Of a stretch of 64,000 nucleotides of DNA, positions 2,046 through 64,000 are shown in pieces. Position 1 is the first letter of the stretch; the number at the start of each line of letters is the position of its first letter. The notes under the pieces are model-generated. The model searched no databases, was not told the origin of the DNA, and saw only the letters and a list, made by a program, of their open reading frames with translations. The stretch covers positions 1,486,765-1,550,764 of the forward strand of contig CAVVMG010000001.1 in assembly GCA_963749415.1 (NCBI GenBank), written 5' to 3'. The position numbers and the translations under genes are program-made. The DNA comes from an uncultured Acidobacteriota bacterium. GTDB lineage: Bacteria > Actinomycetota > Acidimicrobiia > Spongiisociales > ZC4RG35.

Positions 2046-2199
2046 CAGCTCGTTGCTCTCCACGTGTGTGCACCGGCTCCCGGCACACCCCTCACCTGCG
2101 CGCCGCTGCCTGCCCCCTGGTGAGCAATGTACCCAGACCCGATTGTGCCCGCTGGCAATCCCACGTGGGATTGACTGGGGTGTAAGACTCTTCGCCGCC

Positions 2200-2925
2200 A
2201 TGGGAGCGATCCCGGAACACGAGAGGAAGAGACTCGAGGCCGTCGCCGGCGTCGGCCAATCGATCGATGACTTGGTGGCGCGTCGGCTCGCCGGCGAGCC
2301 CCTCCAATACATCGAAGGGACCGCGGCATTCGCGTCACTCGACCTGACTGTCGACGAGAGGGTCTTGATCCCTCGCCCGGAGACCGAAGGCATCTTCGAC
2401 CTGGCGGTACGCATGGTGCGGGCACCCGAGGTGATAGTCGACCTGTGCACCGGCTCCGGGGCCTTGGCTCTTGCTTTGAAGAATGCCTTTCCAGCTGCGG
2501 CGGTGTTCGCAACCGAGATCTCGTCTGAGGCGATGGAGGTCGCGACGATCAATCGTCACAAGACAGGGCTCCAGGTCTACCTGGCCGAAGGTGACCTCTT
2601 CGACCCGCTCCCGGCATCCATCCTGGGCTTGGTAGATCTCATCGTCGCCAACCCGCCGTATGTCGCGGAAGTCGACTTTCCCGGGTTGCCACGAGATGTC
2701 CAGCTGGAACCGAGGATTGCTTTGGTGGCCGGGCCCTCCGGCCTCGAGGTGATCCAGAGGATCGGTGACGCCGCCGGGCAGTGGCTCCGGCCCGGCGGAG
2801 TGCTCATCTGTGAGATCGGGGAGAACCAGGGTGTGTCCGCTTCCAGCTCGTTCCCTGATCTCCCGGTGGTGGTGCGCCAGGATCTGACCGGGCGCGACCG
2901 CTACGTGGTGGCCGTGAAGCCTTGA
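2200..2925 (+). CDS. prmC: Release factor glutamine N5-methyltransferase PrmC/HemK. The start is uncertain; the N-terminal domain may be encoded upstream in another frame.
   Basis: Motifs PLQYIEG, VLIPRPETE, DLCTGSGALALAL and NPPY are all present. Start taken as the first ATG after the divergent response-regulator gene. The product is short (241 aa) for the family. Confidence 0.8.
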   Translation: MGAIPEHERKRLEAVAGVGQSIDDLVARRLAGEPLQYIEGTAAFASLDLTVDERVLIPRPETEGIFDLAVRMVRAPEVIVDLCTGSGALALALKNAFPAAAVFATEISSEAMEVATINRHKTGLQVYLAEGDLFDPLPASILGLVDLIVANPPYVAEVDFPGLPRDVQLEPRIALVAGPSGLEVIQRIGDAAGQWLRPGGVLICEIGENQGVSASSSFPDLPVVVRQDLTGRDRYVVAVKP

Positions 2926-3482
2926 GCCTGGAGGCCGCGACGGTCGCGGTTCGTGCCGGCGAGGTGGTCGGAATCCCAACCGACACGGTCTATGGGATCG
3001 GCGCTGATCCGCTGAACGAGGATGCGGTCGCCCGGCTCTTCGAGCTCAAAGGGCGCCCGGAGCACAAGCCGGTCGGCTTGCTTGTGGCATCGGTCGAGCA
3101 GGCGGCTGAGATCGGCGAGATCGAAGGGTTTGCCGCGGAGCTCGCAACGCGGCACTGGCCGGGTGCATTGACGCTGGTCGTAACCCCCAAGGTGATCCTG
3201 GCCAATTGGGTTGGCGACGCCCAGCGGTTCACCGTTGGCCTCCGAGTCCCCGACCACCCGGTTGCGATCGAGTTGCTGGCCATCGTCGGTCCGTTGGCGG
3301 TGACCTCGGCCAACGTAAGTGGCGGCGAAGAGGCGATGAGTGACGTCGAGGCCAAAGAGGTGTTCGGGGACCAGGTCGCGGTGTATGTCGAAGGCCGGGC
3401 CCCGGGTCGCGAGGCCTCGACAGTGGTCGATGCCACCGGCATCGCGCCCGTTGTCCTTCGTCAGGGCCCGGTGCGCCTTTGA
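2922..3482 (+). CDS. tsaC: L-threonylcarbamoyladenylate synthase, TsaC/YrdC/Sua5 family
   Basis: 186 aa containing [15 protein letters not shown] and the remainder of the YrdC fold. TTG start overlapping the prmC stop by 4 nt. Confidence 0.8.
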
Positions 3483-3504
3483 ATACCCCCGTTACGCTTT
3501 TCCC

Positions 3505-4776
<1,272 letters not shown>

Positions 4777-4833
4777 TCCTGCCGAACGGCGTCTGCCCCG
4801 GCCCGCCGGCAATCCAACTTGCTAGCGTCGATT

Positions 4834-4862
4834 TTGCCTTGAAATCAGGCTCTTCCTACACT
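4834..4862 (+). promoter_or_regulatory. Putative sigma70-like promoter of the atp operon (-35 TTGCCT, 17-nt spacer, -10 TACACT)
   Basis: Lower-GC intergenic stretch between glyA and the first atp-operon gene. Hexamer spacing read directly from the sequence. Confidence 0.35.
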
Positions 4863-4863
4863 T

Positions 4864-4879
4864 TGTGAACACATTCACA
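4864..4879. promoter_or_regulatory. Perfect CRP/GlxR-family binding-site consensus TGTGA-N6-TCACA (TGTGAACACATTCACA)
   Basis: 16-bp site with perfect palindromic half-sites, immediately downstream of the putative -10 and 18 nt upstream of the first atp-operon start codon. Confidence 0.5.
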
Positions 4880-4896
4880 AGCTCTCCCAGTTAGCC

Positions 4897-5130
4897 ATGG
4901 AGCAAGAGACAGCCCACCAACAGATCGGACGCGCCATGAGCGAAGGCTGGTCGCAGGCCGGCTCGTTCCTCGGTTCGATCCTCTCCGGGATGTTGCTCGG
5001 GTTGCTCGCCGACTACTGGCTGGGAACCGAGCCCTGGCTGGTGGTCATCGGGAGCCTGGTCGGCATCTACTCCGGTTTCGTCAACGTATGGCGCTACACC
5101 AAGCAGATCGAGGACGGGCCGCGGCAATGA
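4897..5130 (+). CDS. Small membrane protein of the ATP synthase operon (AtpZ/ATPase_gene1-like, PF09527-like)
   Basis: 77 aa with two TM segments and an LGLLADYWLGTEPW motif. Stop overlaps the atpI start as ATGA. Confidence 0.65.
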   Translation: MEQETAHQQIGRAMSEGWSQAGSFLGSILSGMLLGLLADYWLGTEPWLVVIGSLVGIYSGFVNVWRYTKQIEDGPRQ

Positions 5131-5536
5131 GCTTGGAGCACGGCCCACCGATCGAGTCCAACCTCGCCCGCGACACCGTGGCCCGCGGCATCTATGTAGG
5201 GCCGGTGCTCATCCTGGTGTTCGGCCTCCTCCGTGGGTGGGACGGGGCGTGGAGCGCGGCGCTCGGCGTGTTGGTGGTGATCGCCAACTTCCTGCTGGCG
5301 GGGGCCATCCTCTCGATTTCGGCAAGGATCAGCCTCCAGGCTTATCATGCCGCCGCTCTGATCGGATTCTTCCTGCGTCTCGGCTTGTTCGTCGGCGCGG
5401 TCTACCTCATCGCCACCCTGGTCGAGGTCGACAGGATCGCCTTCGGGATCTCGGCGGTGGTGGCGTACTTCGCCCTCCTGACGTGGGAAGCGGTTTCGAT
5501 CTCGAGAGGCAGAGAAAAGGAGCTCAGTTGGCCACG

Positions 5537-5540: not shown

Positions 5541-6587
<1,047 letters not shown>

Positions 6588-6596
6588 GGAAAGCTC

Positions 6597-22366: not shown

Positions 22367-22944
22367 TGGTCACCACCCGCAACAGCCGTGTCGACGTAGT
22401 CACCGCCGCCGGGCGCCTCTTCGCGGAGCGCGGCTATCAGGGGACGTCGATGCGGGACCTGGGCCGGGAGCTCGGGCTACTCGGGTCGTCCCTCTATGCC
22501 CATGTCGAGTCGAAGCAGGATCTGCTGGTCGAGGTGGTCGAAGAGGGATCCCGGCTGTTTCGCGCCTCTGCCGAGAGCGCGATGGCCGAGGGCGGGTCTC
22601 CTTCCGTCCGGCTGGCGCGGCTCATCGCCGGCCACGTGGGTGTGGTGCTGGCGAATCCCGATGTGGTGCGGACCTTCCTCAACGAGGCAAGGATGCTGGA
22701 TGACGCCCACCGCCGTCGGGTGATCGCAGCCCGCGACTCCTACGAGGCCGTTTTTCGACAGGTGGTCGGCGCCGGTGTGTCCGACGGCTCGTTCCGTCCC
22801 GATGCGGACCCCAAGTTGAGCTCGATCTTCGTCCTCTCGGTTCTGAACGCGATCGAGCGCTGGTACCGGTCCGACGGGGATGTCGGGCCCGACGACCTGG
22901 TCGCTCGCCTGACCGGGTTCCTCCTGGCCGCGCTCAGACGCTGA
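22366..22944 (+). CDS. paaR: TetR-family transcriptional regulator coupled to the 3' end of the paa operon (PaaR-like)
   Basis: 193 aa with an N-terminal TetR HTH (AGRLFAERGYQGTSMRDLGRELGLLGSSLYAHVESKQDLL). ATG overlaps the paaE stop (TGATG). Confidence 0.8.
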   Translation: MVTTRNSRVDVVTAAGRLFAERGYQGTSMRDLGRELGLLGSSLYAHVESKQDLLVEVVEEGSRLFRASAESAMAEGGSPSVRLARLIAGHVGVVLANPDVVRTFLNEARMLDDAHRRRVIAARDSYEAVFRQVVGAGVSDGSFRPDADPKLSSIFVLSVLNAIERWYRSDGDVGPDDLVARLTGFLLAALRR

Positions 22945-24329
22945 CGGTTTCGCTCTCGGGCACGGGGGCCCGCTGCCGTATCTCGGAGGCCAGCCAGAGG
23001 TAGAGCGCCAGGAGGGCGCCAACCACCAACATCAAGATCAGGCTCAGATCGGGGACGTACAGCGCAACCACAGCGATGACCACGCCGACCACCCGGACCA
23101 GGTCGTAGTGGTTCGATACCCAGCTGCTGAAACCACCACCTTGTCCGGGCTCCATCTGCGCATCCCACCACGCCTTCAATCTCATCGCCCACGCCGGGCG
23201 CCCCGTGAGGTAGACGGCGAATCCGATGACCGCGGCCCCGAGCGCGAGCCACAGCATCACCTGCCGCAGGCCAGAGGCAACGTCATACAGCAGACCGATT
23301 GCGATCCGATCACCTGCGGGGTTGGTCACCGCTGCGACCACTTGCTGTTCGATCCAGCGCAACAGGGCCTCCGTGATCGGCACTCCGATGATGATCCCGA
23401 TCGCGAGCTGGATTGCCGTTCTGCGCCTGGTTCTGGATACCCAAAGCGTCACCACGATGAGGAGCAGCGAGAAGATCGCAAGTGCCCAGACCGCCCGGTC
23501 GAGCATGACGACCCCGTTCTGGAGCTCGCTGAGCCGATCCTCGGACATGATGGTCACCTGGCCGAAGTCCTCCGGAAGGCTGGCACCGATCGCTGTCTCC
23601 AGTTGTGCCCGCGCTTCCTCGACGCGCTCCGACACCGCGCTCGGGGAGGGTGATATCGGGGCCGATCCCGCTGAGGTCGGGGAGCACTCGTCTGATCGCC
23701 TCGACGATGATCGGGATCGTGTTGAGGCTTACTTCTCCGTTCTCGACAGAGACGTTGGGGACCTCGGAGAGCTCGTTTCGCAGCAATGCCACGATCCTCT
23801 GATGGGCTGCGCGGACCAGCGGGGGGATCCGCTCCTGGAAGTCGGCTGATTGCACGAACCCGTCGATGCGAGCGGTGATCCTTTCTTCGAGCCCGGAGCT
23901 CAGGGTGGGAGCGAGGTTCTCCAGGGAGGGACGGTCGAAGGAATCGAGGATTTGCTGTCCCCGGTCGCCGATCTCCAGCGCGTCGACCAAAGCGGTGAAC
24001 AGGAAGTCATCGAGTTGGGTCAGTGCGGCGCTGATTCGGGTCTCGAGGTCCAGGGCATCGAGCACCTCGGTGGTGACGCGATCTCCAAGTGCGACATACA
24101 GGTCCGGGTCCTCGAGTGTCGGCCCGACTGCCTGCATGAATGCATCCGTGTCCAACAGCGTGTCCTCGACCCAGAATGCGATCGATGTCAGCACGATGCT
24201 GAGGGAGGTGATGACCACCAGCAGGAAGGTCAGGATCCTCCGAGCCCGCCCGGGCGACTCCGATGCGTTCACGTCGGCCGGCGAACCGGGCTCGGGAGCC
24301 TGGGGCTCTTCGCTGTTTGTCATCGGCAC
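22934..24329 (-). pseudogene. Integral membrane protein gene split by an apparent single-nucleotide frameshift near 23635-23645 (N-terminal TM helix plus ~200-aa extracytoplasmic domain, then a multi-TM C-terminal half). Either a pseudogene or a sequencing indel.
   Basis: Frame A (24329->~23640) reads a plausible protein ...IVEAIRRVLPDLSGIGPDITLPE and then degenerates into Arg/Gly-rich nonsense until 23310. Frame B begins exactly there (GTG 23635, VSERVEEARAQLETAIGASLPEDFG...) and continues as a multi-TM protein to 22934. The frames are offset by 1 nt. Confidence 0.5.
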
Positions 24330-30825: not shown

Positions 30826-31474
30826 TCACGTGACCGGGAGCGCAGGCTCGGAGCGACCGCGCCTCGAGAGATACAGATGCCAGACCAGGCGCGCCGCCAC
30901 CGCCCGCACCGGTCGCCAGGGGGCGGAGACAATCTCCAGCTCTTCGGGCCCGGGGATCTGCTGAAGGCCAAGCGCTTCAGCGACTCCGACTTGGAGGGCA
31001 CGATCGCCGACGGGAAACGCGTCAGGGAGGAGCAAGGCGGAGAGCAGGTAGGCGTCGGCGGTCCAGGACCCGATCCCCCTCATCGCCAGCAACCGGGCCC
31101 GCGCCTCTTCCTCGTCCAGGCCCTGGAGGGCGGCGAGGTCGAGGGTGCCGGCCTCGACCGCCTCGCGCGAGCGAGACGAGGTATCCCGCCTTCTGCCTGG
31201 TGACCCCGATCGCGGTCAGCCCGGTCTCGCCGACCCGGAGCACGGAGCCGGGGGTCACCGCGCCCAGGAGCTCGATGAGCCGCCGGTACATGGCCGCTCC
31301 CGACTCGAGGGAGACCTGCTGCTCGAGGATGAGGAGCACCAGGGTGGGGAAACCCTGCGCTCGCTGCCAGAAGACCGGCAGCCCCCAGTCTTCGATGATC
31401 GAGTGCAAACCCGGGTCCTCGTCGCCCAGCATCCGCGCCGCTTCGACAAATGTGATGGCATCCAGGTGAGTCAC
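30826..31474 (-). pseudogene. AlkA-like HhH-GPD DNA glycosylase domain interrupted by a 1-nt frameshift near 31170-31180. In this sequence it is in frame with, and lacks a stop from, the upstream SodX peptidase.
   Basis: Frame A reads ...FPTLVLLILEQQVSLESGAAMYRRL...RQKAGYLVSLAR then nonsense. Frame C continues exactly at REAVEAGTLDLAALQGLDEEEARARLLAMRGIGSWTADAYLLSALLLPDAFPVGDRALQ, the HhH-GPD hallmark, and runs to the stop at 30826. There is an internal GTG at 31474 (VTHLDAITFVEAARMLGDEDP). Confidence 0.6.
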
Positions 31475-31771
31475 CCGCCGCCACAGATCCCGGATCGCCA
31501 CCGGCCCCAGGGTGCGGGAGTCGGCTGTGGTGACTGAGGCATTGTCCGAAAGCACCCACGCCTCGTCCGGGCCCAACCGCCGCTCGCCGATCGCCTCCCC
31601 GGGCCCGGCCGCCATCCGCTTCACCAGCCAGAAGTCCCCGCGCTCGGGATGAGGCAATGTCACAACCTCGCCGGCCTGGGGCTGGATGGAGTCGGTCGCG
31701 ACGAACTCGTCGCCCGGTAGGAGGGTCGGCAGCATCGAGGATTCGGCTACGCGAAACCGGCGCATGGGCAT
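31475..31771 (-). CDS. sodX: S26 signal-peptidase-family protease, SodX-like (NiSOD maturation peptidase). No in-frame stop before the downstream AlkA-like domain.
   Basis: S26 catalytic motifs SMLPTL (Ser), LVKRMAAGPGE (Lys) and SDNASVTTADSRTLGPV (GDNR-S-DSR box). Divergent from and adjacent to sodN. Start taken at MPMRRFRV (31771). Confidence 0.65.
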
Positions 31772-31823
31772 GGCCCCCCGAGGGTATGGTCGAAAACACA
31801 GACCGGACAACCAAGGAGTGTCA

Positions 31824-32231
31824 ATGCGCCGGGTAACCGTTGCCCATGCACACTGTGACCTGTTCTGCGGGGTCTATGACCCGGCCCAGGCCAAGATCGA
31901 GGCGATGTCGGTGCTCAAGATCGCCGAGAAGTACGCCGAGTCGAGCGACGATGTGTTCAAGGCTCGCGCCATCGCTCTCAAGGAAGAGCGAGCGGAGGAC
32001 GTCAAGCACCATCTGATGGTTCTCTGGGTCGACTTCTTCACCGCCGACCACCGCAAGGAGTTTCCCGACCTCGATGATCTCTTCTGGAGGGCGATCCATC
32101 AGGCCGGCGACGCCAAGAAGTCGGTTGATCCCGAAGACGGGAGGAAGCTGATCGAGCTCATCGATGAGATCGCCGACATCTTCTGGCAGACCGAGAAGGC
32201 GAAGGGGATGGGGGTCTACCCGCCCGCTTGA
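31824..32231 (+). CDS. sodN: Nickel-containing superoxide dismutase precursor (9-aa leader MRRVTVAHA then the Ni-hook)
   Basis: Mature N-terminus HCDLFCGVYDPAQAKIEA... matches NiSOD (HCDLPCGVYDPAQA) along its whole length (VKHHLMVLWVDFF, IDEIADIFWQTEKAKG). SD AAGGAG 6 nt upstream. Position 5 of the hook is Phe, not the usual Pro. Confidence 0.9.
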   Translation: MRRVTVAHAHCDLFCGVYDPAQAKIEAMSVLKIAEKYAESSDDVFKARAIALKEERAEDVKHHLMVLWVDFFTADHRKEFPDLDDLFWRAIHQAGDAKKSVDPEDGRKLIELIDEIADIFWQTEKAKGMGVYPPA

Positions 32232-32520: not shown

Positions 32521-34158
32521 TCAGTCGAGGGCGTCTGGCTCCAGCTTGGCGAACAGCGGCCGGACCTCCCCCAACGGTGCCCCGGCCTCGATCGGCGGGC
32601 GACGCCAGCCGTCGACCTCCACCGGGCCGCCCAGCATCGCCCCCACCACCGGGGTGGTGAACGGGAGATAAGGGGAAAGGGCGACCCTGATCCCCGAAAT
32701 TGCCTGGATGGCCGTCCATAGGATCGTCTCGGCACGTTCCCGGTCTTCCTTGACCAACTTCCATGGGGCGTTTGCGTTGAGGTAGACGTTCACTTCGGAC
32801 GCCGCATCCATCGCTGCCCGCAGGCCGGCGCGAAGCTCCACCTTTTCGATGTGAGAGCCGACGGCATTCAGCGCCGCATCGACCTTCACCAGCAGCTCGT
32901 CGTCGTCGGGCCGGAGCGCCGAAGGCGAGGGAACCTTGCCGTCGAAATTGGCCGCCGTCAATGACAGGACCCGGTTCACGAGGTTGCCCCAGGTGGCCAC
33001 CAGCTCGTCGTTCACCCTTCGGATGATCTCCTCGTCGCTGAGGTCGGTGTCGTTCTGCTCGGGGAGAATCGAGGCGATGGCGTAGCGCAGAGGGTCGGGT
33101 TCCATGCGCTCGGCGTACCACCCCATCGATCGCCCCACCCCACGACTGGCCGAGGCTTTCTCCGTGCCAAAGGTCACGTATTGGTTGGCAGGGACATCCG
33201 TGGGGAGATCGAGCCCCCCATAGCCCATGAGCATGCCGGGCCAGATCACCGTGTGAAACGGGATGTTGTCCTTGCCCACGAAGTAGTAGGACTCGGCGTC
33301 GGGATCTTCCCACCAGCGCCGCCATGCTTCGGGGTCGTCACCGAGTTGGGCCCACTCCTTGGCCGCCGACAGATAGCCGATCACCGCGTCGAACCAAACG
33401 TAGATCCGCTTCCCGGGACCCAGGTCGTCGACGGGGACCTCGACTCCCCATTCGATGTCACGGGTGATGGCACGATCAGGCAGGCCCTCGTTGACCATCC
33501 CCAACGCCCAATTCTTGACATGCCGGCGCCAGCCGGTTCGGGACTCCAGCCACTCGCGGAGCGGTTCTTGGAGCTTGGACAACAGCAGGAAGAAGTGCTC
33601 GGTGTCTCGAAGCACAGGAGCTGCGCCGCTGAGTCGGGAGCGGGGCTCGATGAGGTCGGTGGCGTCCAAAGTGCGCCCGCAGTTCTCGCACTGGTCGCCT
33701 CGGGCTTCCGGGTAGCCGCAGTGGGGGCAGGTGCCCTCCACGTAGCGATCGGGAAGGAATCGCTCGGCTTCCGGGTCAAAGAACTGGGCAGTGGTCCGCT
33801 TGGCGAGGTAGCCATGCTCGAGGAGGCGCAGGAAGACATCTTGGGTCACCGCGTGGTGGTTGGGGGTGCCGGTCGAGGTGTACAGGTCCCATGAGATCCC
33901 GAGGAGGTCCCAGTTCTCGAGGAATTCGGCGTGGTACCGATCCACGATCACCTGGGGCTCGACCCCCTCGTTGTCGGCGCGGACTGTGATCGGCGTCCCG
34001 TGCACATCTGATCCGGACACCATCAGCACCTGGTTGCCGGCGAGGCGGTGGTAACGGGCGAAGATGTCAGCAGGCAGATAGGCGCCGGCCAGGTGCCCGA
34101 GGTGTCGGGGTCCCGAGGCATACGGCCATGCGACGGCAACGAGGATGTGACGGGGCAT
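32521..34158 (-). CDS. metG: Methionine--tRNA ligase
   Basis: 545 aa with the HIGH motif (PYASGPRHLGHLAG), KMSKS-like VGKDNIPFHTVIWPG and Zn-knuckle cysteines CPHCG...CENCG. The ATG at 34158 gives a canonical N-terminus. The upstream 100 aa of the 647-aa ORF in the track are junk. Confidence 0.92.
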   Translation of the reverse strand: MPRHILVAVAWPYASGPRHLGHLAGAYLPADIFARYHRLAGNQVLMVSGSDVHGTPITVRADNEGVEPQVIVDRYHAEFLENWDLLGISWDLYTSTGTPNHHAVTQDVFLRLLEHGYLAKRTTAQFFDPEAERFLPDRYVEGTCPHCGYPEARGDQCENCGRTLDATDLIEPRSRLSGAAPVLRDTEHFFLLLSKLQEPLREWLESRTGWRRHVKNWALGMVNEGLPDRAITRDIEWGVEVPVDDLGPGKRIYVWFDAVIGYLSAAKEWAQLGDDPEAWRRWWEDPDAESYYFVGKDNIPFHTVIWPGMLMGYGGLDLPTDVPANQYVTFGTEKASASRGVGRSMGWYAERMEPDPLRYAIASILPEQNDTDLSDEEIIRRVNDELVATWGNLVNRVLSLTAANFDGKVPSPSALRPDDDELLVKVDAALNAVGSHIEKVELRAGLRAAMDAASEVNVYLNANAPWKLVKEDRERAETILWTAIQAISGIRVALSPYLPFTTPVVGAMLGGPVEVDGWRRPPIEAGAPLGEVRPLFAKLEPDALD

Positions 34159-43001: not shown

Positions 43002-43878
43002 ATGGAGTCTGATGTCATCCCGGTCACTGTTCCGCTCGACCTGAGGCGGGCCCTGCGGCCGCTCCACGGCTGGTTCGCAAAGGACGGCTGGTGGAAGACC
43101 GCGAGGACACCTGAGGGCAGCGGCTCCCTTCGCATCTCCCGCACCACCCAGGGGTTGGTGGGGCACGCCTGGGGCGACGGCAGCAATTGGCTGCTCGCCC
43201 GGCTTGGTTCGTTTGCCGGCCTCGACGACGACCCGACCCGGTTCGAGACCGATCATCCATTGGTCGGTGAGCTTCATCGCCTCCACCCCGGAATGCGCTT
43301 CGGAAAGAACGGCCTCGTCTTCGACGCCCTGGTCACTGCAATCACGGGCCAGAAGGTCACCGGCGCCGAGGCCGCTGCGGCGGGTGCCGGGCTGCGACGA
43401 GTTTTTGCCGACGATGCGCCGGGGCCCAATTCCGGGCTCCGCCTACCACCCGACCCCGACCGCATGGCGGCGGCCCCATATTGGGCCTACCACGAGCTGC
43501 ACCTGGAGCGGCGCCGGGCCGAGACGTTGCGCCGGGTCGCCGACCGACCATGCCGCCATCGGGATGCTGGGCGAGTTGCCGGTTGGCGAGGCCGCCGCCC
43601 GTCTCGCCGCGTATCCCGGAGTCGGGCCGTGGACGGTGGCCAAGACCCTGGTGGTGTCGCACGGCGATCCGGATCAGGTCGAGGTCGGCGACTTCCACGT
43701 CAAGCACATCGTGGTCCACCATCTGACGGGCCGGCCCCGTGGCTCCGACGAGGAGATGCTCGCACTTCTCGAGCCATTCCGCCCCCATCGGGGCCGGGTC
43801 ATCCGCCTGCTCCACACCCTCGGTCACGAGCCGAAGTTCGGTCCGAAGGTTCGGGCCCGGGACTTCACCCGAAGCTGA
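43002..43878 (+). pseudogene. Second AlkA-like HhH-GPD DNA glycosylase gene, frameshifted near 43530-43560
   Basis: Frame 1: MESDVIPVTVPLDLRRALRPLHG...NGLVFDALVTAITGQKVTGAEAAAAGAGLRRVF...HLERRRAETLRRVADRP then nonsense. Frame 2 continues AAIGMLGELPVGEAAARLAAYPGVGPWTVAKTLVV...GDFHVKHIVV... to the stop at 43878, which overlaps the P450 ATG. Frames offset by 1 nt. Confidence 0.6.
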
Positions 43879-45029
43879 TGATCGATCCGGCCAGCATCAC
43901 CCTTACCGAACTCGAGGACGACCCTCATCCCATCCTCGCCGACCTGCTCCGTCACTATCCGGTGTGCCACATACCGAGCATGGACATGTGGCTAGTCACC
44001 CGCTGGGATGACGTGGTCTACGTCTGCGAGCACCCCGAACTGTTCTCGGCCAACACCGACCCGAGTTGGCTGCGCGACTGTCTCGGGGAGAACATGCTCA
44101 CCCTCGACGGCGAGAGGCACGACCGGCTTGCCAACGGGATGCGTCCTTCCTTCTCCGGGACCGAAGCGGGAAAGGCGGTGAGGGAGTCGCTGCCGGCGAT
44201 GCTCGACGGTCTCATCGACGAGTTTGTGGCATCCGGCTCCACCGACCTCATGGTCTCCTATGCCGAGCCGCTGGCCAACCTGACATTGCTCAATGCATTG
44301 GGGATGACCTCGGTGGCGTGGCAGGAGCTTGCCGGGTGGTGCCGCGGGGTGATCACCGGCATCTCCAACTTCGAGAACGACCAGGAGAAGGCAGACCTCG
44401 CCGCGCTGGCCCACCGAGAGCTCGGGGAAGCCCTGGATCGGGAGCTGGGCCGACTGTCAGAGGAACCCGACGAAAGCGGCCTGTCCCATTTCCTGCGCGC
44501 CGGGTTCGCCCGGGACGAGATAGTCAACAACGTACGGCTCATGATCTCCGGAGGGATCAATGAGCCACGCGACGGTGTTGGCCTCGTCATGTATGTCCTC
44601 CTCAGCGATCCGGCGCTGTTGAGCCAGGTCGGTGAGGACCGAGCAGTCCTGCGCAAGGTGATCGAGGAGACTCTTCGACTCCACACACCGGTGGGGACGG
44701 CTACCCGCCAGGCGACGCGTGAACTGAAGCTGTCTGGGGTGTCTATCCCCGAAGGGTCGGTGGTCGCCGCCGTGCTCACTGCGGCCAACCGAGACCCGTC
44801 GCGTTGGTCGGAGCCGAACCGGTTCCGACTTGATCGTGGTGAGGGCTCTCACATCGCTTTCTCGCTCGGTGAGCATCGCTGCCTCGGCGAATGGCTGGCC
44901 CGCCAGCAGGTGAGGATCGGGGTGGAACGGCTCCTCGACCGACTGCCGGGGATCCGGCTAACCGGCGAGGTGAAGCTCCACGGTTTTGAGTTTCGGGGCC
45001 CGGTCGCCCTGGAGGTCGCTTGGGGTTGA
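43878..45029 (+). CDS. Cytochrome P450
   Basis: 383 aa with the heme loop FSLGEHRCLGEWLA, the EXXR-type ETLRLHTP and I-helix-like MISGGINEP. ATG overlaps the alkA-like stop (TGATG). Confidence 0.88.
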   Translation: MIDPASITLTELEDDPHPILADLLRHYPVCHIPSMDMWLVTRWDDVVYVCEHPELFSANTDPSWLRDCLGENMLTLDGERHDRLANGMRPSFSGTEAGKAVRESLPAMLDGLIDEFVASGSTDLMVSYAEPLANLTLLNALGMTSVAWQELAGWCRGVITGISNFENDQEKADLAALAHRELGEALDRELGRLSEEPDESGLSHFLRAGFARDEIVNNVRLMISGGINEPRDGVGLVMYVLLSDPALLSQVGEDRAVLRKVIEETLRLHTPVGTATRQATRELKLSGVSIPEGSVVAAVLTAANRDPSRWSEPNRFRLDRGEGSHIAFSLGEHRCLGEWLARQQVRIGVERLLDRLPGIRLTGEVKLHGFEFRGPVALEVAWG

Positions 45030-45032: not shown

Positions 45033-46265
45033 TCAGTAGTAAGGGAGGTACTCCCGGATCTCCCAGTCGGTGGTGTGAGTGGAGAAGCGCTCCCATTCGG
45101 CCCGCTTGACGGCGAGGAAACCCTCGACATACGCAGGGGAGAAGGCCTCCACGAATTCCTTGTCACGCTCCAGCGCATCGAGCGCCGCCCCCAGGTCGGG
45201 CGGGCAACAGGTGTCGGTGTCGGCCCCGGTGATGCAGTCCTGGCTCTCGGCGGGCGGGCACTCCATCTCGAGGCGCACCCCGCGCAGTGCGGACACCAGG
45301 GTGGCAGCCGCAGCCAGGTGCAAGGAGGCGGCACCGTCGGCGAGCCGATGCTCGAGCCGGATGCCGGAGTCGGTGGCCGGGGGTACGCGAAGCGCCACAC
45401 CGCGATGGTCGTAGCCCCAGTTGGCGTAATAGCCGTTGAGTGAGGCTGGTTGGAGCCGCTTGTACGCGTTGACCGTCGGTGCCACCAGGGCGGTCATCGA
45501 AACGTGGTCATTGACGATCCCGGCGATGCATTGCCGGGCCAGCTCGCTGAGTCGATCAGGGGCGGAGTCGTCGATGAGCGCATTGCGGCCCTGATCGTCG
45601 ATGAGGGAGACGTTGACATGGATGCCACTCCCTCCGCGCTCGGTGATCGGCTTGCCCATGAATGCCAGGAGGAGTCCGCGCTTGGCCGCGATCTCCTTGG
45701 CCATCACCTTGAACAGAAAGGCGTCGTCGCACGCCTCGAGGGCCTCTCCGTAACGAAGTGTCAGTTCGAACTGCCCGTCGTCATACTCGGAATTGACCGA
45801 CTCCAGCTCCAGGCCGACCTCCCGGGCGGTCTCCATGATCTCCTGGATCGTGCCCGTGGGGTCGACCGCGGTGCCGGTGCCGTAGACGTAGGAGCCGGGG
45901 GTATATATCGGCTGCCATCCCCGGTCACCGTCTGGCTCGAAGAGGAAGGCTTCGAGCTCGAAGCCGACCATGGGATTCAACCCCAGCTCTCGCCACTCGC
46001 CGACGACACGCTCCAGGATCGAGCGGGGGGCGAGCTCGACCGGTGCCCCGTTCTTGGAGATCGAAGCCACCACGACACCGGTGCCCGGCTCCCACCCGGG
46101 CCGGACATCGTCCATGGAGAAGCGCGCCTCGACATCGGGGAAGCTCTCATGGTGGGCACCGGGATGGGGGATCATCACCCGGTTGAGCTGGAGGGAGAAC
46201 AGAGCCACGCAGTGATTGCTGCCCTCCGCAGCTCTTGCGCCGGAGAGATACTTCCCTCGAGCCAA
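45033..46265 (-). CDS. Glutamine-synthetase-like gamma-glutamyl ligase (GS catalytic domain, PuuA/GlnA3/GlnA4/IpuC-like). Conserved in-frame coding continues upstream to ~46484 without a canonical start codon.
   Basis: GS catalytic-domain motifs (FELEAFLF, NSEYDDGQFELTL, GSGIHVNVSL, NAYKRL, GYDHRGVALRVP). Upstream of the TTG at 46265 the same frame is open for 73 more codons and encodes a GS N-domain-like sequence (...SYDRVRFLWPDHLGLARGKYL), but with no ATG/GTG/TTG. Confidence 0.8.
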   Translation of the reverse strand: MARGKYLSGARAAEGSNHCVALFSLQLNRVMIPHPGAHHESFPDVEARFSMDDVRPGWEPGTGVVVASISKNGAPVELAPRSILERVVGEWRELGLNPMVGFELEAFLFEPDGDRGWQPIYTPGSYVYGTGTAVDPTGTIQEIMETAREVGLELESVNSEYDDGQFELTLRYGEALEACDDAFLFKVMAKEIAAKRGLLLAFMGKPITERGGSGIHVNVSLIDDQGRNALIDDSAPDRLSELARQCIAGIVNDHVSMTALVAPTVNAYKRLQPASLNGYYANWGYDHRGVALRVPPATDSGIRLEHRLADGAASLHLAAAATLVSALRGVRLEMECPPAESQDCITGADTDTCCPPDLGAALDALERDKEFVEAFSPAYVEGFLAVKRAEWERFSTHTTDWEIREYLPYY

Positions 46266-46518
46266 TCCGAGATGATCCGGCCAGAGGAACCGAACCCGGT
46301 CGTAACTCGCCTCGCTCAGAACCTTCTCCTGTGGGACTCGATGGTTAGTGGCCCGCCGCAGAAATACTGGTGGCGTCTCTCCGGCCCTCGACGCCCCTGG
46401 CCGTGTCGAAGTGCTCGCCGCAGCTCCCCGGCTGCGACTGCGCGCTTCTCCTTGCCAGATGACGCCGATGGCTCGGAGACACCCTCACCCTATTTCTCCG
46501 ACAGACCACTCAGAAACA

Positions 46519-46536
46519 GTATCAACCCCTTGATAT
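46519..46536. promoter_or_regulatory. Inverted repeat GTATCAA-CCCC-TTGATAT 10 nt upstream of the GATase start codon
   Basis: 6/7 matching arms in the divergent intergenic region between the GS-like and GATase genes. Confidence 0.3.
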
Positions 46537-46545
46537 TCTCGCCCG

Positions 46546-47235
46546 ATGCGGGCACTGGTCATCGAACACGACCCGCTGTCCACCCCGGAGCGGGTCGGGG
46601 AGCACTTGGAGCGACGAGGGTTCAGCCTCGAGCATTTCGTCGTGGTCGAGGACATCGACCACCCGGATGTCAGCGCAACCTTTCCCGAGAACGGAAGCCA
46701 CGACCTGGTGGTGCTGATGGGCGCCCCCTGGTCGGTTTACGACCCGGTGATGAAGGGCTGGGTGGGCCCGGAGCTCGACTTCATTCGGCACAATCAGGAA
46801 CGCGGGGTCCCCGTGCTCGGAATCTGCTTTGGGGGCCAAGCCCTCTCCGCCGCACTCGGCGGCTCCGTCAGACATGCCGGCCGCCCGGAATACGGGTGGG
46901 GGAGCATCGAGCCCACTGTCGACCAGATCGCCGGCGGCCCCTGGTTCCAGTACCACCACGACGAGTTCACACTCCCTCCGGGCGCAACCGAGCTCGCCCG
47001 CAACCAGTCGGGAGTCCAGGCGTTTCGCTCGGCCCGGGCTCTTGGCGTCCAATTCCATCCCGAGATGACCGCCGGCCTGTTGGGATCCTGGTGCGAGGTC
47101 GACGGCTGTTCGGAGATGGTGGAAGCCGGGTTGGACGTTGACCAGGTCATCGAGCAGAGCCGCACCCTCGAGGTCGACACCCAGCCCGACCTGGAGCGGA
47201 TGCTCGACTGGTTCCTCGACGACTTTGCAAGCTGA
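46546..47235 (+). CDS. Class I glutamine amidotransferase-like protein (GATase1/peptidase C26; candidate gamma-glutamyl hydrolase)
   Basis: 229 aa with the GATase1 pattern VLGICFGGQALSAALGG (Cys nucleophile) ... FQYHHDE ... GVQFHPE (His). Confidence 0.8.
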   Translation: MRALVIEHDPLSTPERVGEHLERRGFSLEHFVVVEDIDHPDVSATFPENGSHDLVVLMGAPWSVYDPVMKGWVGPELDFIRHNQERGVPVLGICFGGQALSAALGGSVRHAGRPEYGWGSIEPTVDQIAGGPWFQYHHDEFTLPPGATELARNQSGVQAFRSARALGVQFHPEMTAGLLGSWCEVDGCSEMVEAGLDVDQVIEQSRTLEVDTQPDLERMLDWFLDDFAS

Positions 47236-47237
47236 GG

Positions 47238-48494
47238 ATGACCGGTCCGCCCCCGGGAGTCGGCATCGACCTCACCGACCCCGATCTCTGGGAACGCGGG
47301 GTTCCGCACGCCGAGCTTCACAGGCTTCGTGACCAAGCTCCCGTTGCCTGGGCAGAGCATCCGGGCCCGCACCGCGGTTTCTGGGTGGTGACCCGCCACG
47401 AGGATGTCTTGTCGGTGTCACGCGATGCGGAGACCTTCTCGTCCCGGGATGGTGTGATCTCTTTGGAAGACCTCGACCCCGATCAGATCGATGCGCGGCG
47501 GTCGATGCTCGAAGAGGACCCCCCGCGCCACCGCGAGCTCCGTGCACTCACCTCCGCACACTTCACTCCGAGGGCGGTCCGGGTCCACGAGGGCTACATC
47601 CGCCAGCTCGCGGTGGATGCGATCGAGTCGGCGCTGGAGAAGGGGGACTGTGACCTGGTGTCGACACTCAGCGAGCGGGTGCCGATCCGGGTGCTGGGGC
47701 GCATCCTCGGAGTCCCAGACCAGGACGTGGACGAGCTGGTCCGCCTCGGCAATCAGATGATCGGTGCGGACGATCCGGAATACGGGAATCCGGGCGACCC
47801 ACCAATCCCGGCCGGCGACATGAGACTGCTCCCGTTCGGACATCCTGCCGCGCTGGAGGCCTTTGAGATGGCCTGGCGGATCACCAGGGACCGGGGCCCA
47901 GCAGACGGCACCGACGTTCTGGGAGCTCTGGCCCGGGGCCAGGTGGACGGCGTGCCGCTTACCGATCGCGAGCTCGGCACCTACTTCGTGCTCCTGGTGA
48001 TCGCCGGGAATGAAACGACCCGGCACAGCATCTCCGCCGGAGTGGCCGCCCTCGCTGCCAATCCTGAGGAGTGGAGGCGCCTCCGCACGCGGTCCGTCGA
48101 CCCGACTCGGGCCGCCGACGAGATTCTGAGATGGGCGACGGCGATCCACTTCCACCGTCGGATCGCCACCAGGGACACGAGCCTTCGCGGCGTGGAGATT
48201 GCAGCCGGTGACAAGGTGGCGGTGTACTTCGCATCGGCGAACTTCGACGAACGGGCGTTCTACGAGCCGTTCCGGTTCGATGTCGGCCGGTCACCCAATG
48301 AGCACGTCGCGTTCGGGCGCGGCGGCCCTCATTACTGCCTGGGAGCGCATCTCGCCAGGCTCGAAGTGCGGGTGGTCCTCGAGGAGCTCGCAGCTCGGGT
48401 CGCCTCGATCGAATTGACCGGAGAGCCGAGCCGGCTCCGTTCCAACCACATCAACGGCATCAAGCACCTTCCCGCCCGTCTCACGGCAGCCTGA
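47238..48494 (+). CDS. Cytochrome P450
   Basis: 418 aa with the heme loop FGRGGPHYCLGAHLA, the EXXR-type EILRWAT and I-helix AGNETT. ATG 3 nt after the GATase stop. Confidence 0.9.
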   Translation: MTGPPPGVGIDLTDPDLWERGVPHAELHRLRDQAPVAWAEHPGPHRGFWVVTRHEDVLSVSRDAETFSSRDGVISLEDLDPDQIDARRSMLEEDPPRHRELRALTSAHFTPRAVRVHEGYIRQLAVDAIESALEKGDCDLVSTLSERVPIRVLGRILGVPDQDVDELVRLGNQMIGADDPEYGNPGDPPIPAGDMRLLPFGHPAALEAFEMAWRITRDRGPADGTDVLGALARGQVDGVPLTDRELGTYFVLLVIAGNETTRHSISAGVAALAANPEEWRRLRTRSVDPTRAADEILRWATAIHFHRRIATRDTSLRGVEIAAGDKVAVYFASANFDERAFYEPFRFDVGRSPNEHVAFGRGGPHYCLGAHLARLEVRVVLEELAARVASIELTGEPSRLRSNHINGIKHLPARLTAA

Positions 48495-61070: not shown

Positions 61071-61149
61071 CTCGATTTCCGAGTGATGATTGCCCGCCCG
61101 ATTCTCTACCATTCCGCCCACCTCCCTTCTTTCGCAAAAGGAACCTGTC

Positions 61150-62079
61150 TTGAAGAAACTCGCAATCCCAGTCTTGGCGGTCGCGCTCGCTCTCGGCGCA
61201 TGTGGCGGAGGCGATGAAGTCGCCGCAACTGTTGATGGCGACGATGTGACCGTCGTCGACGTCGAAAGCCTCATCGACAACGGCGAGGAGCCGGTCGAGC
61301 CCGGCGCCCTGTTCGCCGAGGTGCTCACGTTCAGCGTGATTCACAGCATCGTCGTCCGGGCCGCCGAGGAAGACTTCGGCATCACCTTCACCGAGGACGA
61401 GATCGCGGCCGAGGCTGACGAGATAGTCGAGGGTGAGCTAGCCGAGGGTCAGACCCGGGAAGCCTTCCTCCAGGAGCGAGGGGCCACCGAGCTGTATCTC
61501 CAGCAGGCCGCCGAACAATCGTTGGTCGCCACCGCAGTCGTCGAGGCGATCAAGGGCGACCTGGACCCCCCGACCCAAGAAGAGATCGACACCCAGATGG
61601 AGCAGAACACCAAGAACCTGACCGAGGTCTGTGCCTCGCACATCCTGGTGGCGACCGAGGAGGAGGCCCAAGAGGTCACGGATCGGCTGGCGGCGGGCGA
61701 GGAGTTCGCCAACCTGGCGGCCGAGCTCTCCACTGATGGCAGCGCTGAGCAGGGCGGCGATCTCGGGTGCCAGCAGGCCGGCGGCTACGTGCCGGAGTTC
61801 GCCACCGCAGCGCTGGAGGCCGAGCTAAACGTGCCTACGGATCCGGTCCTGTCCGAGTTCGGCTATCACATCCTGCTGGTCACGGAGCGGACCGAGGCAC
61901 AACCCGCAGACCTGCCGACCGAGGACGAGGTCATCGACACCCTCCAGACCCAGGCCGCAGGCCCGGGCGCTCAGGAGTGGTTCGACGGCAGGATGGCCGA
62001 TGCCGAAGTGGTGGTCACCGAGCAGTTCGGCACCTGGCAGTTGGAGCCCAACCCAGAGGTTGTGCCTCCCACCGAGTGA
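61150..62079 (+). CDS. PpiC-type peptidyl-prolyl cis-trans isomerase lipoprotein (PrsA/SurA-like)
   Basis: Signal and lipobox LKKLAIPVLAVALALGACGG (TTG start, AAGGA SD). Parvulin domain ...VCASHILVATEEEAQEV...GDLGCQQAGGYVPEF...FGYHILLV. Confidence 0.8.
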   Translation: MKKLAIPVLAVALALGACGGGDEVAATVDGDDVTVVDVESLIDNGEEPVEPGALFAEVLTFSVIHSIVVRAAEEDFGITFTEDEIAAEADEIVEGELAEGQTREAFLQERGATELYLQQAAEQSLVATAVVEAIKGDLDPPTQEEIDTQMEQNTKNLTEVCASHILVATEEEAQEVTDRLAAGEEFANLAAELSTDGSAEQGGDLGCQQAGGYVPEFATAALEAELNVPTDPVLSEFGYHILLVTERTEAQPADLPTEDEVIDTLQTQAAGPGAQEWFDGRMADAEVVVTEQFGTWQLEPNPEVVPPTE

Positions 62080-63494
62080 TCCTGGTCATAGGTCTCGGCC
62101 CCGGCGACCTCGACCGGGTCCCGGAGACCGTTCGAACCATCCTCCTCGACTCTGACAATCGGGTGATCGCGCGGACCCGCCACCATCCGGCGGCGGAACA
62201 GCTGGCTCAGCTGAGGGAAGTCACCTTCTGTGATGACCTCTACGAGGCTTCCGACAGCTTCGACGACGTATACGCCGCCATCGCCGATCGGGTGATGGCG
62301 TCATCCGCGGAGGGAGCGGTGGTGTACGCAGTCCCCGGGAGCCCGATGGTTGGGGAGTTCGCGGTGCGCAAGCTCATGGAGTCCGGGGCCGGGATCGAGG
62401 TCATCCCCGCCGAGTCGTTCATCGACGCCATCCTCGCAACTGTCGCCTACGACCCGCTGGACAGGGGCCTACAGATCCTCAATGGGCATGGGCTACCGGT
62501 GCCCCTGGTCCTGGACAAGCCGACGATCATCGCCCACCTCGACCGCCCGGAAGTCCTCGCGGATGTGGCGGCGGCGGTGGACCGTGTCCTCCCCGAGGGA
62601 GCGCCGGTGTTCTTGCTCACTGAGCTCGGGTCGGCGGACGGCAGAATCGTCGAGTCCACCGCCAACACCGTGGATCCGGCGCGAGCCGGCTTTCGCACTT
62701 CGATGTACATCGATGCCGAGCCCGGCGGCTTGATCGGTGCGGTGCAGACCATGGCCCGGCTCCGCGAGGAGTGTCCCTGGGATCGGGAGCAGACCCACCA
62801 GAGCCTGATGAAGAACCTGGTCGAGGAGAGCTACGAGCTGATCGACGCCGTTTCCCGGCTCCCCGAAGGCGAGCCCGACTGGGTGGCGTATTCCGAGGTC
62901 GAGGACGAGCTGGGTGACGTTCTGCTCCAGGTGTTGTTCCATGCCGCCATCGCCCGCCAAGCGGGTGCGTTCGACATCGACGATGTCGCAGAGGTCCTGC
63001 GCCAGAAGCTGGTGAGGCGCCATCCCCACGTCTTTGGTGACGTCGAAGTGGCCTCGGCGGCCGAGGTCAAGTCGAACTGGGACCGGATCAAGGAAGAGGA
63101 ACGGGGCGAGGTGGCGGAGTCCGCCCTGGACGATGTCTCCGAGGGGATTCCGGCCTTGCAGCGGGCGTCCAAAGTGCAGAACCGCGCCGCCAAGGTGGGT
63201 TTCGATTGGGAGGAGGCGGCCCAGGTCGTGCCCAAGGTCCGCGAGGAGATCGATGAGCTGGAGGCGGTGCTCGACGATCCCGATCGGGCGGGGAGCGAGT
63301 TGGGGGATGTCTTGTTCTCGGTGGTCAATCTGGCCCGCCACCTCGGGCTCGATCCTGAGATAGCACTGCGCCAGGCGACCGATCGCTTCGAGACGAGGTT
63401 CCGGCGCATGGAGTCCGAGGGAACACTCGAGGGTCTCGATCTCGGCGGGCTCAATGAACGGTGGGACCGGGCGAAGGAAATGGAGCGGGATTAG
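62076..63494 (+). CDS. mazG: Tetrapyrrole-methylase-like domain fused to MazG nucleoside-triphosphate pyrophosphohydrolase (YabN-type)
   Basis: N-terminal ILVIGLGPGDLD... (TP_methylase-like). C-terminal tandem MazG/EE-xx-E motifs (LVEESYELIDA, VREEIDELEAVL...ELGDVLFSVVNLARHLG). GTG overlaps the PPIase stop (GTGA). Confidence 0.8.
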   Translation: MILVIGLGPGDLDRVPETVRTILLDSDNRVIARTRHHPAAEQLAQLREVTFCDDLYEASDSFDDVYAAIADRVMASSAEGAVVYAVPGSPMVGEFAVRKLMESGAGIEVIPAESFIDAILATVAYDPLDRGLQILNGHGLPVPLVLDKPTIIAHLDRPEVLADVAAAVDRVLPEGAPVFLLTELGSADGRIVESTANTVDPARAGFRTSMYIDAEPGGLIGAVQTMARLREECPWDREQTHQSLMKNLVEESYELIDAVSRLPEGEPDWVAYSEVEDELGDVLLQVLFHAAIARQAGAFDIDDVAEVLRQKLVRRHPHVFGDVEVASAAEVKSNWDRIKEEERGEVAESALDDVSEGIPALQRASKVQNRAAKVGFDWEEAAQVVPKVREEIDELEAVLDDPDRAGSELGDVLFSVVNLARHLGLDPEIALRQATDRFETRFRRMESEGTLEGLDLGGLNERWDRAKEMERD

Positions 63495-63502
63495 CCCGCC
63501 GC

Positions 63503-64000
63503 TCAGGGAGGGTCGGGCCCGCTGGTGTAGGTGTGGCCGAGGGGGCTGGTCCACTGGTAGTTACCAGGCTTGGTCCGTTTCAGCCGCCATCCGGCGTGCT
63601 TGAGCCGGTGATCGTGGCGGCAAAGTGGGGAGAGGTTGTCGGTGGTGGTGGGTCCGCCTTCGACCCAGGCTCGAGTGTGGTCGAGGTCACAGTCGGTGGC
63701 GGGCATCCGACATCCCGGGAAAACACAGGTCGGCGTCTGGGTTTCGACCTGGCGGGTCTGGTGGGTGGTGGGTCTTCTCCGGGTGGTCCCGGTCCATACC
63801 GGCTCCCCGTTCTCGGTGACGGTGACCCGGTGAGTGGAGGTGGTCTGCTCGTCGGGCGACCTGGCGGGCGATGTCGGCGATCACCGGTCCGTACCCGTTG
63901 AGCTCACCCGGCGCCTCTGACAGTCCGGCGAGAACTTGGAGATCAACGGTGATGTCCACCGTTCCCCGATCGCGCCCGTGATCCTGGCTCGTCCCGTGGA
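63503..64000 (-). pseudogene. DUF222/HNH-endonuclease-family gene (REP13E12-like), C-terminal part only. Frameshifted near 63845 and truncated by the window edge.
   Basis: The frame ending at 63503 reads ...TPTCVFPGCRMPATDCDLDHTRAWVEGGPTTTDNLSPLCRHDHRLKHAGW (HNH motif) and runs upstream to a stop at ~63880. A second frame upstream reads ...LAGLSEAPGELNGYGPVIADIARQVA (the DUF222 core). The two are offset by 1 nt. Confidence 0.6.

Follow-up and report, generated by a model that had tools for sequence, protein, structure and literature searches.

Four of the six frame breaks that had been described for this window (the whole 64,000-nucleotide stretch of DNA analysed here) proved to be real single-nucleotide breaks on comparison with in-frame relatives. 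At each of the four, the window carries one extra base (+1), and we consider it probable (about 0.7) that these are residual one-base insertion errors in the consensus of a MAG built from long reads only. The preliminary description had estimated five to six breaks per 64 kb; the count is four, i.e. 0.065 per kb, since the loci proposed for prmC and a glutamine synthetase (GS)-like gene are not frame breaks. The affected genes and the breaks are:

22937–24323, minus strand: conserved hypothetical membrane protein gene, 462 aa after removal of one base; its two frames split at ~23638
23636–23642, minus strand: break 1, context CCCGAG[C]GCGGTG, one base more than in the in-frame contig L003
30829–31765, minus strand: gene for an S26 peptidase (SodX-like) fused to an HhH-GPD (AlkA-like) domain, 312 aa after removal of one base; divergent from sodN
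31166, minus strand: break 2, an extra G, CTCGC[G]CGAGG
43002–43878, plus strand: second AlkA-like glycosylase gene, 291 aa after removal of one base
43543, plus strand: break 3, an extra A, GTCGCCG[A]CCGACC
63503–64000, minus strand: 3′ part of a DUF222/HNH endonuclease gene, with the N-terminus past the window end
63851, minus strand: break 4, an extra base, GCCCGA[C]GAGC

Removal of 1 nt at each site was needed to match the in-frame relatives, and it gave uninterrupted open reading frames of 462, 312 and 296/291 aa together with a continuous HNH C-terminus. No second lesion was found in any of the four genes after this one-base correction. All four breaks are +1 insertions. They lie in GC-rich contexts outside homopolymers, as had been noted from the sequence alone. 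The earlier identification of single-nucleotide breaks in these four genes was likewise borne out, each being absent from in-frame relatives. The extra base at ~23638 is absent from contigs L003, L010 and L013, and that at 31166 from L002 (98.5% nucleotide identity), L003 and 19 other genomes spanning the site. Neither L004 and L005 nor the short-read-style (k127/Logan) contigs L028 and L029 have the extra A at 43543, and L006 lacks the extra base at 63851.

At a genomic GC content of 65%, off-frame open reading frames are long, and a GTG codon lies right at the membrane-protein junction. Such features might suggest that the paired frames are separate adjacent genes, or are joined by chance homology, rather than being parts of one broken gene. 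At these four loci that reading is refuted, and we regard it overall as hardly credible, because the stitched proteins can be aligned along their whole length with single homologues and, across the junction, with solved AlkA-family structures. The stitched membrane protein is 86% identical to the 462-aa protein P0123 over 99% of its length; its homologues, each a single protein of ~462 aa, continue without interruption across the break site, and the junction GTG is GTC in L002. For the fusion gene, the source's own call is a 247-aa stump. Its Pfam HhH-GPD match crosses the junction only after correction, when it scores 42.3 bits (PF00730; cut-off 26.2), and the corrected protein matches PDB 2yg8 with E = 7e-22 and retains the catalytic Asp (that of 'PVGD', aligned to 'SSGD'). 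The second AlkA-like protein scores 17 bits with PF00730, under the 26.2 cut-off, in a match that spans profile positions 2–107 of 108; its alignment to E. coli AlkA (E = 6e-7) also crosses the junction. Finally, the corrected 164-aa HNH reading matches single proteins over 92–100% of its length and contains the HNH domain (PF01844, 33.7 bits; cut-off 21.4). The window does not reach the DUF222 part; homologues carry both PF02720 and PF01844.

The fusion of an S26 peptidase to an HhH-GPD domain, adjoining sodN, is a conserved arrangement in its own right. The S26 part passes the Pfam Peptidase_S26 cut-off (31.6 bits against 22.9), and the curated SodX cut-off (TIGR02754) is not reached by this gene (33.8 bits against 63.25). 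A SodX-like role is supported by context only, namely by the position next to, and divergent from, sodN.

Separate units are indeed what is found at the two remaining loci:

1677–2045, minus strand: divergent response-regulator gene
2200–2925, plus strand: prmC, 241 aa, intact
45033–46319, minus strand: GS-like gene, not frame-broken, 428 aa from an inferred CTG start at 46319–46317
46346–46512, minus strand: MITE-like hairpin repeat of ~167 nt between the GS and GATase genes, with inverted ends TAGTGGYC...GRCCACTA, mostly TA-flanked

The N-terminal domain of PrmC had been placed in another frame at 2066–2190. This region falls within the intergenic stretch 2046–2199, between the response-regulator gene and prmC, and prmC itself is intact. 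PrmC has 241 aa in three assemblies and passes TIGR03534 with 212.3 bits (cut-off 199.1) over profile positions 31–252 of 253. The alternative plus-strand frames of 2040–2262 were considered as a possible home for a PrmC domain and rejected: both contain stops (2121, 2172, 2183) and neither has a Pfam match.

The GS-like gene had been thought to lack a start codon and to have 73 conserved N-terminal codons at 46266–46484. Only 18 of these 73 are conserved, and a start is present, as the gene probably begins at a conserved CTG with the Shine-Dalgarno sequence AGGAGAA 6 nt upstream. Four assemblies, the k127 contig L028 among them, keep this CTG (46319) and the preceding GGAGAA. The protein belongs to the glutamine synthetase family (PF00120, Gln-synt_C, 276.6 bits) and reaches no NCBIfam equivalog cut-off, the best being that of type III GS (228 against 469.6). 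The start-less in-frame 'codons' are explained by the hairpin repeat, which is dispersed and not coding.

The hairpin repeat family is widespread and has no Rfam match; a search of 46200–46600 at E values up to 10 gave nothing credible. IS630/Tc1-mariner-type MITEs duplicate a TA target. The repeat has the characters of this class, being short (~167 nt) and non-coding, with long terminal inverted repeats and a TA duplication (mostly seen as flanking TA within CTAG), and its many copies have unrelated flanks and often sit at the ends of contigs. It differs from such elements in having many G-U pairs on one strand only and an unusually conserved central ~100 nt; because of these two properties, a role as a structured RNA is possible.

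Two scans of the window were consistent with the comparison of relatives. A codon-usage Viterbi scan gave three same-strand frame switches lacking a stop/start boundary, and these are breaks 1–3; the label at the window end, in the HNH gene, was examined by hand. The same scan rightly read metG in a single frame where L002 disagrees, and codon statistics are coding-like beyond each break. A scan of open reading frames against the window for frame switches is noisy in this high-GC genome, and its events backed by several independent genomes are again breaks 1–3. Events at ~21300, 31770–31800 and 47220–47250 lie at gene boundaries or in antisense open reading frames and were discarded. No further window-specific break was found when positions 2–63972 were scanned against seven related contigs. 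At gathering thresholds there are no Rfam families in the whole window, and it contains no tRNAs.

Indel error of long-read or MAG assemblies, the explanation that had been put first, accounts best for the four real breaks, the prmC and GS-like loci having dropped out. If correct, one base would have been inserted in the consensus at each site, in assembly or polishing rather than by mutation, and in the organism most of the four genes, if not all, would be intact. This reading is favoured because the breaks at sites 2, 3 and 4 are private to the window and that at site 1 is absent from L003, L010 and L013, because sister assemblies show the same mode of error, and because there is no sign of decay, each gene having a single lesion and the second AlkA-like gene and the membrane protein gene a low pN/pS past the break.

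The sister assemblies are instructive in this respect. Related contigs with Flye-style 'contig_N' names (ENA ERZ25039494, ERZ25039576) have private one-base indels of their own, for the most part insertions outside homopolymers, and some of these fall in housekeeping genes. Thus, metG is broken in L002, whereas the window and L003 have a normal 545-aa gene, and atpD is broken in L007 by a private one-base indel. Additionally, an amidase gene and paaE are broken in L003, and dozens of genes in L005, all of them intact in the window. Since sister contigs break genes that the window keeps, this kind of assembly demonstrably yields frameshifts. Their rate in sister-type assemblies is ~0.05 to 2 per kb, compared with the 0.065 per kb of the window. 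A point against error is that the window is a fairly clean assembly, with zero gaps over 9.3 kb against L001 and gaps at only 7 positions in 17.5 kb against L006. The source genome is a 2.64-Mb single contig, and circumstantial evidence suggests that it was built with Nanopore/Flye/Medaka-type technology like the sister contigs. Among the genomes of the genome scan that carry the same fusion gene as the window (55–67% protein identity) are long-read MAGs of Microflora Danica with contigs named in the same way, another point in favour of error. Indel errors and polishing are mentioned in the paper on the long-read catalogue (PMC12313526).

The window resembles Nanopore-only (Flye plus Medaka) MAGs in having private single-base indels scattered in conserved genes, whose correction restores the reading frame. 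It differs from the usual reports, which concern deletions in long homopolymers, in that its breaks are insertions in GC-rich, non-homopolymer sequence; platform and depth of the source are presumed in this comparison. Relative to the window, the indels of L002 and L005 amount to 56 insertions and 12 deletions, mostly of G/C and mostly not homopolymer extensions. The sequences TCGCC and CCGAS at the breaks looked suggestive of a common or methylation-like motif, and we claim none. CCGAS, which occupies 10.9% of window positions, is not enriched at insertion sites in sister assemblies (7 of 52, against ~5.7 expected; p = 0.34), and k-mer enrichment gave a weak CAGC signal and nothing else.

It is also possible, if unlikely, that the extra bases are genuine and very recent strain-specific frameshifts, through which two alkylation-repair glycosylases, the membrane protein and the HNH element have been lost. 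The breaks are, after all, truly present in the deposited sequence. Several observations sit better with mutation than with error. All four genes are dispensable; however, this placement is uninformative, since its probability by chance is ~0.27 (a rough estimate taking ~28% of coding length as housekeeping). The extra C at break 1 is common to the window and L002, in which the site has two bases more; here L002 was set aside as a referee, because the site edges a low-quality stretch of that contig (16 gaps and 35 mismatches over the neighbouring 500 bp). Decay is common among HNH/DUF222 elements, which are often real pseudogenes, and the HNH gene is multiply broken in L006 too. Of the four breaks, those in the HNH gene and the membrane protein gene are the likeliest to be real. 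Lastly, both AlkA-like paralogues have their break in the same helix, 1–5 codons apart depending on the alignment, which random errors would rarely produce and for which we offer no explanation.

Against these points, four pseudogenes with a single lesion each would be present among ~60 genes, and no older pseudogene with several lesions lies close by; at ~1% divergence, ~0.3–0.6 strain-specific frameshift pseudogenes are expected per 60 genes. Spontaneous bacterial indels lean to deletion. In contrast, all four breaks are insertions, in keeping with the strong insertion lean of the errors in sister assemblies, where the same kind of lesion affects the housekeeping genes metG and atpD. Furthermore, pN/pS past the breaks falls in the low range of intact neighbouring genes (0.05–0.20), such that any inactivation would have to be extremely recent. 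Beyond break 3, comparison with L004 gave 10 synonymous and 2 non-synonymous differences (pN/pS 0.07; 12 substitutions, a small count), and beyond break 1 there were 5 and 2, respectively (pN/pS 0.14; 7 substitutions, again a small count). Neither relaxed selection in these two genes nor further lesions, at one per gene, were seen past the breaks.

The same data bear on the pseudogenising lineage that had been offered as the alternative explanation. Frameshifted pseudogenes are a feature of genome decay in Mycobacterium leprae, and the window resembles such genomes in that conserved genes, DNA-repair genes included, show one-base frame changes. Unlike them, it has no multiple lesions, relaxed selection or IS expansion, and close strains are intact. 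Long-running decay is therefore disfavoured; what survives of this idea is very recent mutation at single sites. We consider it quite improbable that a free-living strain of Acidimicrobiia very recently inactivated both AlkA-family paralogues (each by +1, in the same helix), the membrane protein and the HNH element. Were this so, a sequence-specific insertion hotspot would be indicated, or else selection for losing alkylation repair, as in a mutator-like state, and the two alkylation-repair glycosylases, lost in parallel, would make a modest evolutionary curiosity.

Finally, the shifts all have the same direction and the downstream frames are still selected, features that would also be expected of programmed +1 ribosomal frameshifting or recoding, with full-length proteins being made from the sequence as it stands. 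Programmed +1 frameshifting is known from prfB, and, as there, a +1 shift would restore the frames of the window. Unlike prfB, no shift site is conserved: orthologues, whether close or distant, read through each of the four sites in frame, so there is no conserved recoding signal. Moreover, the break sites have neither a stop nor a slippery motif, and L002 would require a different shift at site 1. We give recoding a probability of virtually nil.

Taken as insertion errors in the consensus, the breaks amount to a warning about data quality. Gene calls truncate or split ~6% of the genes in the window, and anyone tallying pseudogenes, missing repair genes or "novel short proteins" in MAGs of this kind would be led astray. 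The by-products of the analysis, i.e. the CTG start, the hairpin repeat and the S26/HhH-GPD fusion, may be more useful than the breaks themselves.

Three-frame translation revealed four sites in the window at which a conserved protein jumps from one frame to the next. At each, deletion of a single base restored the reading, giving unbroken ORFs of 462, 312 and 296/291 amino acids and a continuous HNH C-terminus. The correction was the same at all four sites, namely one base fewer, and none of them lies in a homopolymer, in agreement with the preliminary description, which had placed the breaks outside long homopolymers. That description had listed six broken loci, of which the four below are borne out by in-frame relatives with one base fewer, but prmC and a GS-like gene are not.

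~23638, minus strand: break 1, membrane protein gene
30829-31765, minus strand: S26 peptidase (like the NiSOD maturation protease) plus AlkA-like HhH-GPD, ~312 aa
31166, minus strand: break 2, within this fusion gene
43543, plus strand: break 3, second AlkA-like gene (AlkA2)
63851, minus strand: break 4, DUF222/HNH gene

The window has 65% GC and zero ambiguous bases. By gene content and nearest relatives it belongs to the Acidimicrobiia, and exact protein look-ups put its genes on one contig of 2,641,084 bp, present at NCBI and ENA. Contigs for comparison were found via exact protein sequence, cluster members and one genome scan, and they jointly span window positions 2-63972. In addition to those tabulated, L008, L028 and L029 come from MAG119 (GCA_044867525.1, k127 contig names) and one Logan contig; we infer that these are short-read assemblies.

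Related contigs compared with the window (contig; ENA assembly; window positions; nucleotide identity; gaps)
L001; ERZ25039494; 3986-13251; 99.19%; 0
L002; ERZ25039494; 20840-36707; 98.47%; 24
L004/L006; ERZ25039494; 40518-63972; 94-99%
L005; ERZ25039576; 33905-55165; 97-98%; 44
L003, L007; ERZ25039494; ~2-34328; ~92-93%; many, mostly paired

At site 2, the upstream frame ending '...QKAGYLVSLA' is followed in the next frame by 'EAVEAGTLDLAAL...GIGSWTADAYLL', and DNA alignment places a single surplus G at 31166. The stitched protein aligned to solved AlkA-family glycosylases with no interruption (2yg8, E = 7e-22) and matched thousands of S26/HhH-GPD fusions, ~312-321 aa long, with identities reaching 87%. 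The call for this gene in the source genome is a truncated product of 247 aa (P0019), and a sister strain has the intact 312 aa (P0121). At site 3, where L004 and L005 both lack an A that the window has at 43543, the alignment of the stitched protein to E. coli AlkA runs across the junction, and the gene is whole, at 291 aa, in L004, L028 and L029. At sites 1 and 4 the window exceeds L003 and L006, respectively, by one base. The stitched protein of site 1 matches single proteins of ~462 aa (P0123: 86% identity, 99% coverage), and the corrected C-terminal reading of site 4 (164 aa) aligns with DUF222/HNH proteins along 92-100% of its length.

For the fusion protein, 3877 homologues were found at E <= 1e-5; both domains are present in almost all of the 120 listed, which are mainly from Acidimicrobiia and are annotated in their sources as one or the other, either 'S26 family signal peptidase' or else 'DNA-3-methyladenine glycosylase II'. 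The gene is divergent from the adjoining sodN (31824-32231), whose Ni-hook has the sequence HCDL[F/Y]CGVYDP both in the window and at each of the 22 related loci inspected. Since the canonical motif is HCDLPCGVY, an aromatic residue here replaces the Pro.

The N-terminal domain of PrmC had been thought to lie in a different frame (2066-2190), a reading that the comparison did not sustain. The two other plus-strand frames of 2040-2262 contain stop codons and gave no Pfam match. The gene (2200-2925, plus strand) starts at 2200, and its product of 241 aa, equal in length in three assemblies, passes the curated equivalog model (212.3 bits, cut-off 199.1). This PrmC is short, and of Pfam PrmC_N it matches no more than the final 21 positions. 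In this region (window 1-2925; L007:5777-10726), prfA and prmC are parted by a minus-strand cassette of three genes, encoding a response regulator (1677-2045), then a HEAT-repeat protein, then a GT2 glycosyltransferase; this layout is kept in relatives. As L007 has prfA upstream of the same cassette, the unusual order is ancestral to the group rather than the product of an indel.

The GS-like gene (45033-46319, minus strand) has an intact catalytic domain. It had been credited with 73 conserved in-frame codons lacking a start, yet conservation begins at a CTG codon at 46319 in the window, L004, L005 and L028, and the codons upstream belong to a hairpin repeat. In all four sequences, including the short-read-style k127 contig L028, GGAGAA, a conserved Shine-Dalgarno sequence, stands 5-7 nt upstream of the CTG; further upstream they diverge in sequence and length, including a frame-changing one-base difference in spacing. 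No canonical start codon is conserved. The TTG at 46265, the ORF-finder start, was rejected, being CTG in L004 and L028. Because conservation begins at the CTG behind GGAGAA and the TTG is not conserved, we infer from the alignments that the gene starts at this CTG (46317-46319, minus strand) and would encode 428 aa, which agrees with the point at which solved GS structures begin aligning. Gene callers had picked three different wrong starts, giving 391, 410 and 440 aa. The first of two P450 genes (43878-45029) sits between the AlkA-like and GS-like genes; MAG119 (L028/L029) has no P450 at that position, and there the two genes adjoin.

46346-46512, minus strand: hairpin repeat, ~167 nt, also at L024:1796-1964 and loci L030-L087

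Homology between the window and L004 ends exactly at 46320 and restarts at 46491. On the minus strand the repeat is predicted to form a long hairpin (-93.9 kcal/mol, z = -6.1). It has ends of the form TAGTGGYC...GRCCACTA, mostly TA-flanked, and a distant genome contains a copy of 85% identity in an unrelated context. The 26-nt apex occurs 58 times as an exact match among JGI metagenome contigs, often close to a contig end and with unrelated flanks. Compensatory changes affect 24 of the 55 predicted pairs, chiefly within the outer 30 nt, and some pairs are G-U in just one of the two strands; a search of Rfam gave no credible match. The repeat looks like an IS630-type MITE, though it could have a role as a structured RNA. 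A possible ORF of 47 codons within the repeat (46346-46490, minus strand), with a GTG start just downstream of GGAGAAA and a TAA stop ~25 nt upstream of the GS gene Shine-Dalgarno, is probably spurious.

The density of five or six breaks per 64 kb claimed earlier comes down to four in scans at three levels. In a codon-usage Viterbi analysis, same-strand switches without a stop/start boundary occurred at sites 1-3 only, all remaining frame switches coinciding with the stop of one gene and the start of another. In nucleotide alignments to seven relatives, the other unpaired in-gene indels break the relative's gene and leave the window ORF full-length, a version also found in a second relative wherever one covers the site; the remaining indels fall between genes or are offset by another a few bases away. 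At the protein level, a scan with the ORFs of all relatives gave sites 1, 2 and 3 as the break-like events that several independent genomes support. Multi-genome events at ~21300, 31770-31800 and 47220-47250 were dismissed, lying at gene boundaries or on antisense ORFs.

The sequence comparisons suggest, with a probability of about 0.7, that the four breaks are residual insertion errors of assembly. Each is private to the window, save that the extra C of site 1 also occurs in L002, and the sister contigs carry their own private one-base indels in genes intact in the window. In L002, two bases missing from metG (window 32915-32919) create an artificial fusion to the downstream PGPGW gene; MetRS is normal (545 aa) in the window and L003, with GC3 high right to the stop. 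Similarly, atpD is split in L007, an amidase gene and paaE are split in L003, and dozens of genes are broken in L005. L002 and L006 each contain a short indel-dense stretch, with 16 gaps and 35 mismatches within 500 bp in L002 (window 23772-24313) and no fewer than five frame changes in the L006 HNH gene (from window 63503-63972 onwards). Relative to the window, L002 and L005 together show 56 insertions and 12 deletions. Most of these concern G or C, and most do not extend a homopolymer; each of the four window breaks is likewise an insertion of this type. Among the genomes that the genome scan found to carry the fusion gene, at 55-67% protein identity, are long-read MAGs of Microflora Danica, whose contigs are also named 'contig_N'.

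Alternatively, some or all of the breaks might be genuine, very recent mutations, which we consider unlikely; programmed recoding seems extremely improbable. About 0.3-0.6 strain-specific frameshift pseudogenes are expected per ~60 genes at ~1% divergence, whereas sister-contig error rates predict 3-6 errors in a rough likelihood comparison, and error is therefore favoured for most sites. Nothing in the broken genes points to decay. In the part of the gene downstream of break 3, 10 synonymous and 2 non-synonymous differences separate the window from L004 (pN/pS 0.07), and downstream of break 1 the corresponding counts against L002 are 5 and 2 (pN/pS 0.14); intact neighbours give 0.05-0.20. For site 1, the probability of at least 5 synonymous changes in 7 under neutrality is ~0.015 by hand calculation, which makes it unlikely that the two strains inherited a frameshift there. 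The assembly-indel explanation put forward earlier is thus the likeliest for the four breaks, but does not apply to prmC and the GS-like gene, which are not breaks.

Some points fit insertion error poorly. Sites 2 and 3 break AlkA-like paralogues in the same alpha-helix, aligned to 'RAEALIHLANAALEG' of E. coli AlkA and, by alignment, 1-5 codons apart (31166, 43543); a rough hand estimate puts chance at <=1e-4, before allowing for after-the-event noticing. No sequence motif common to the break sites survived control. At site 1, L002 carries the window's extra C and one more base, which could reflect a shared real lesion plus an error in L002; two errors within its bad stretch are favoured because pN/pS downstream is low. 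The HNH element, for its part, may be a genuine pseudogene in the window's strain and in that of L006.

Given their clusters of one-base indels, the sister ENA assemblies (L002, L005, L006) are unfit as error-free references. The breaks are useful as a caution in annotating the genome to which the window belongs; as biology they are ordinary, and they are probably no true feature of the organism.
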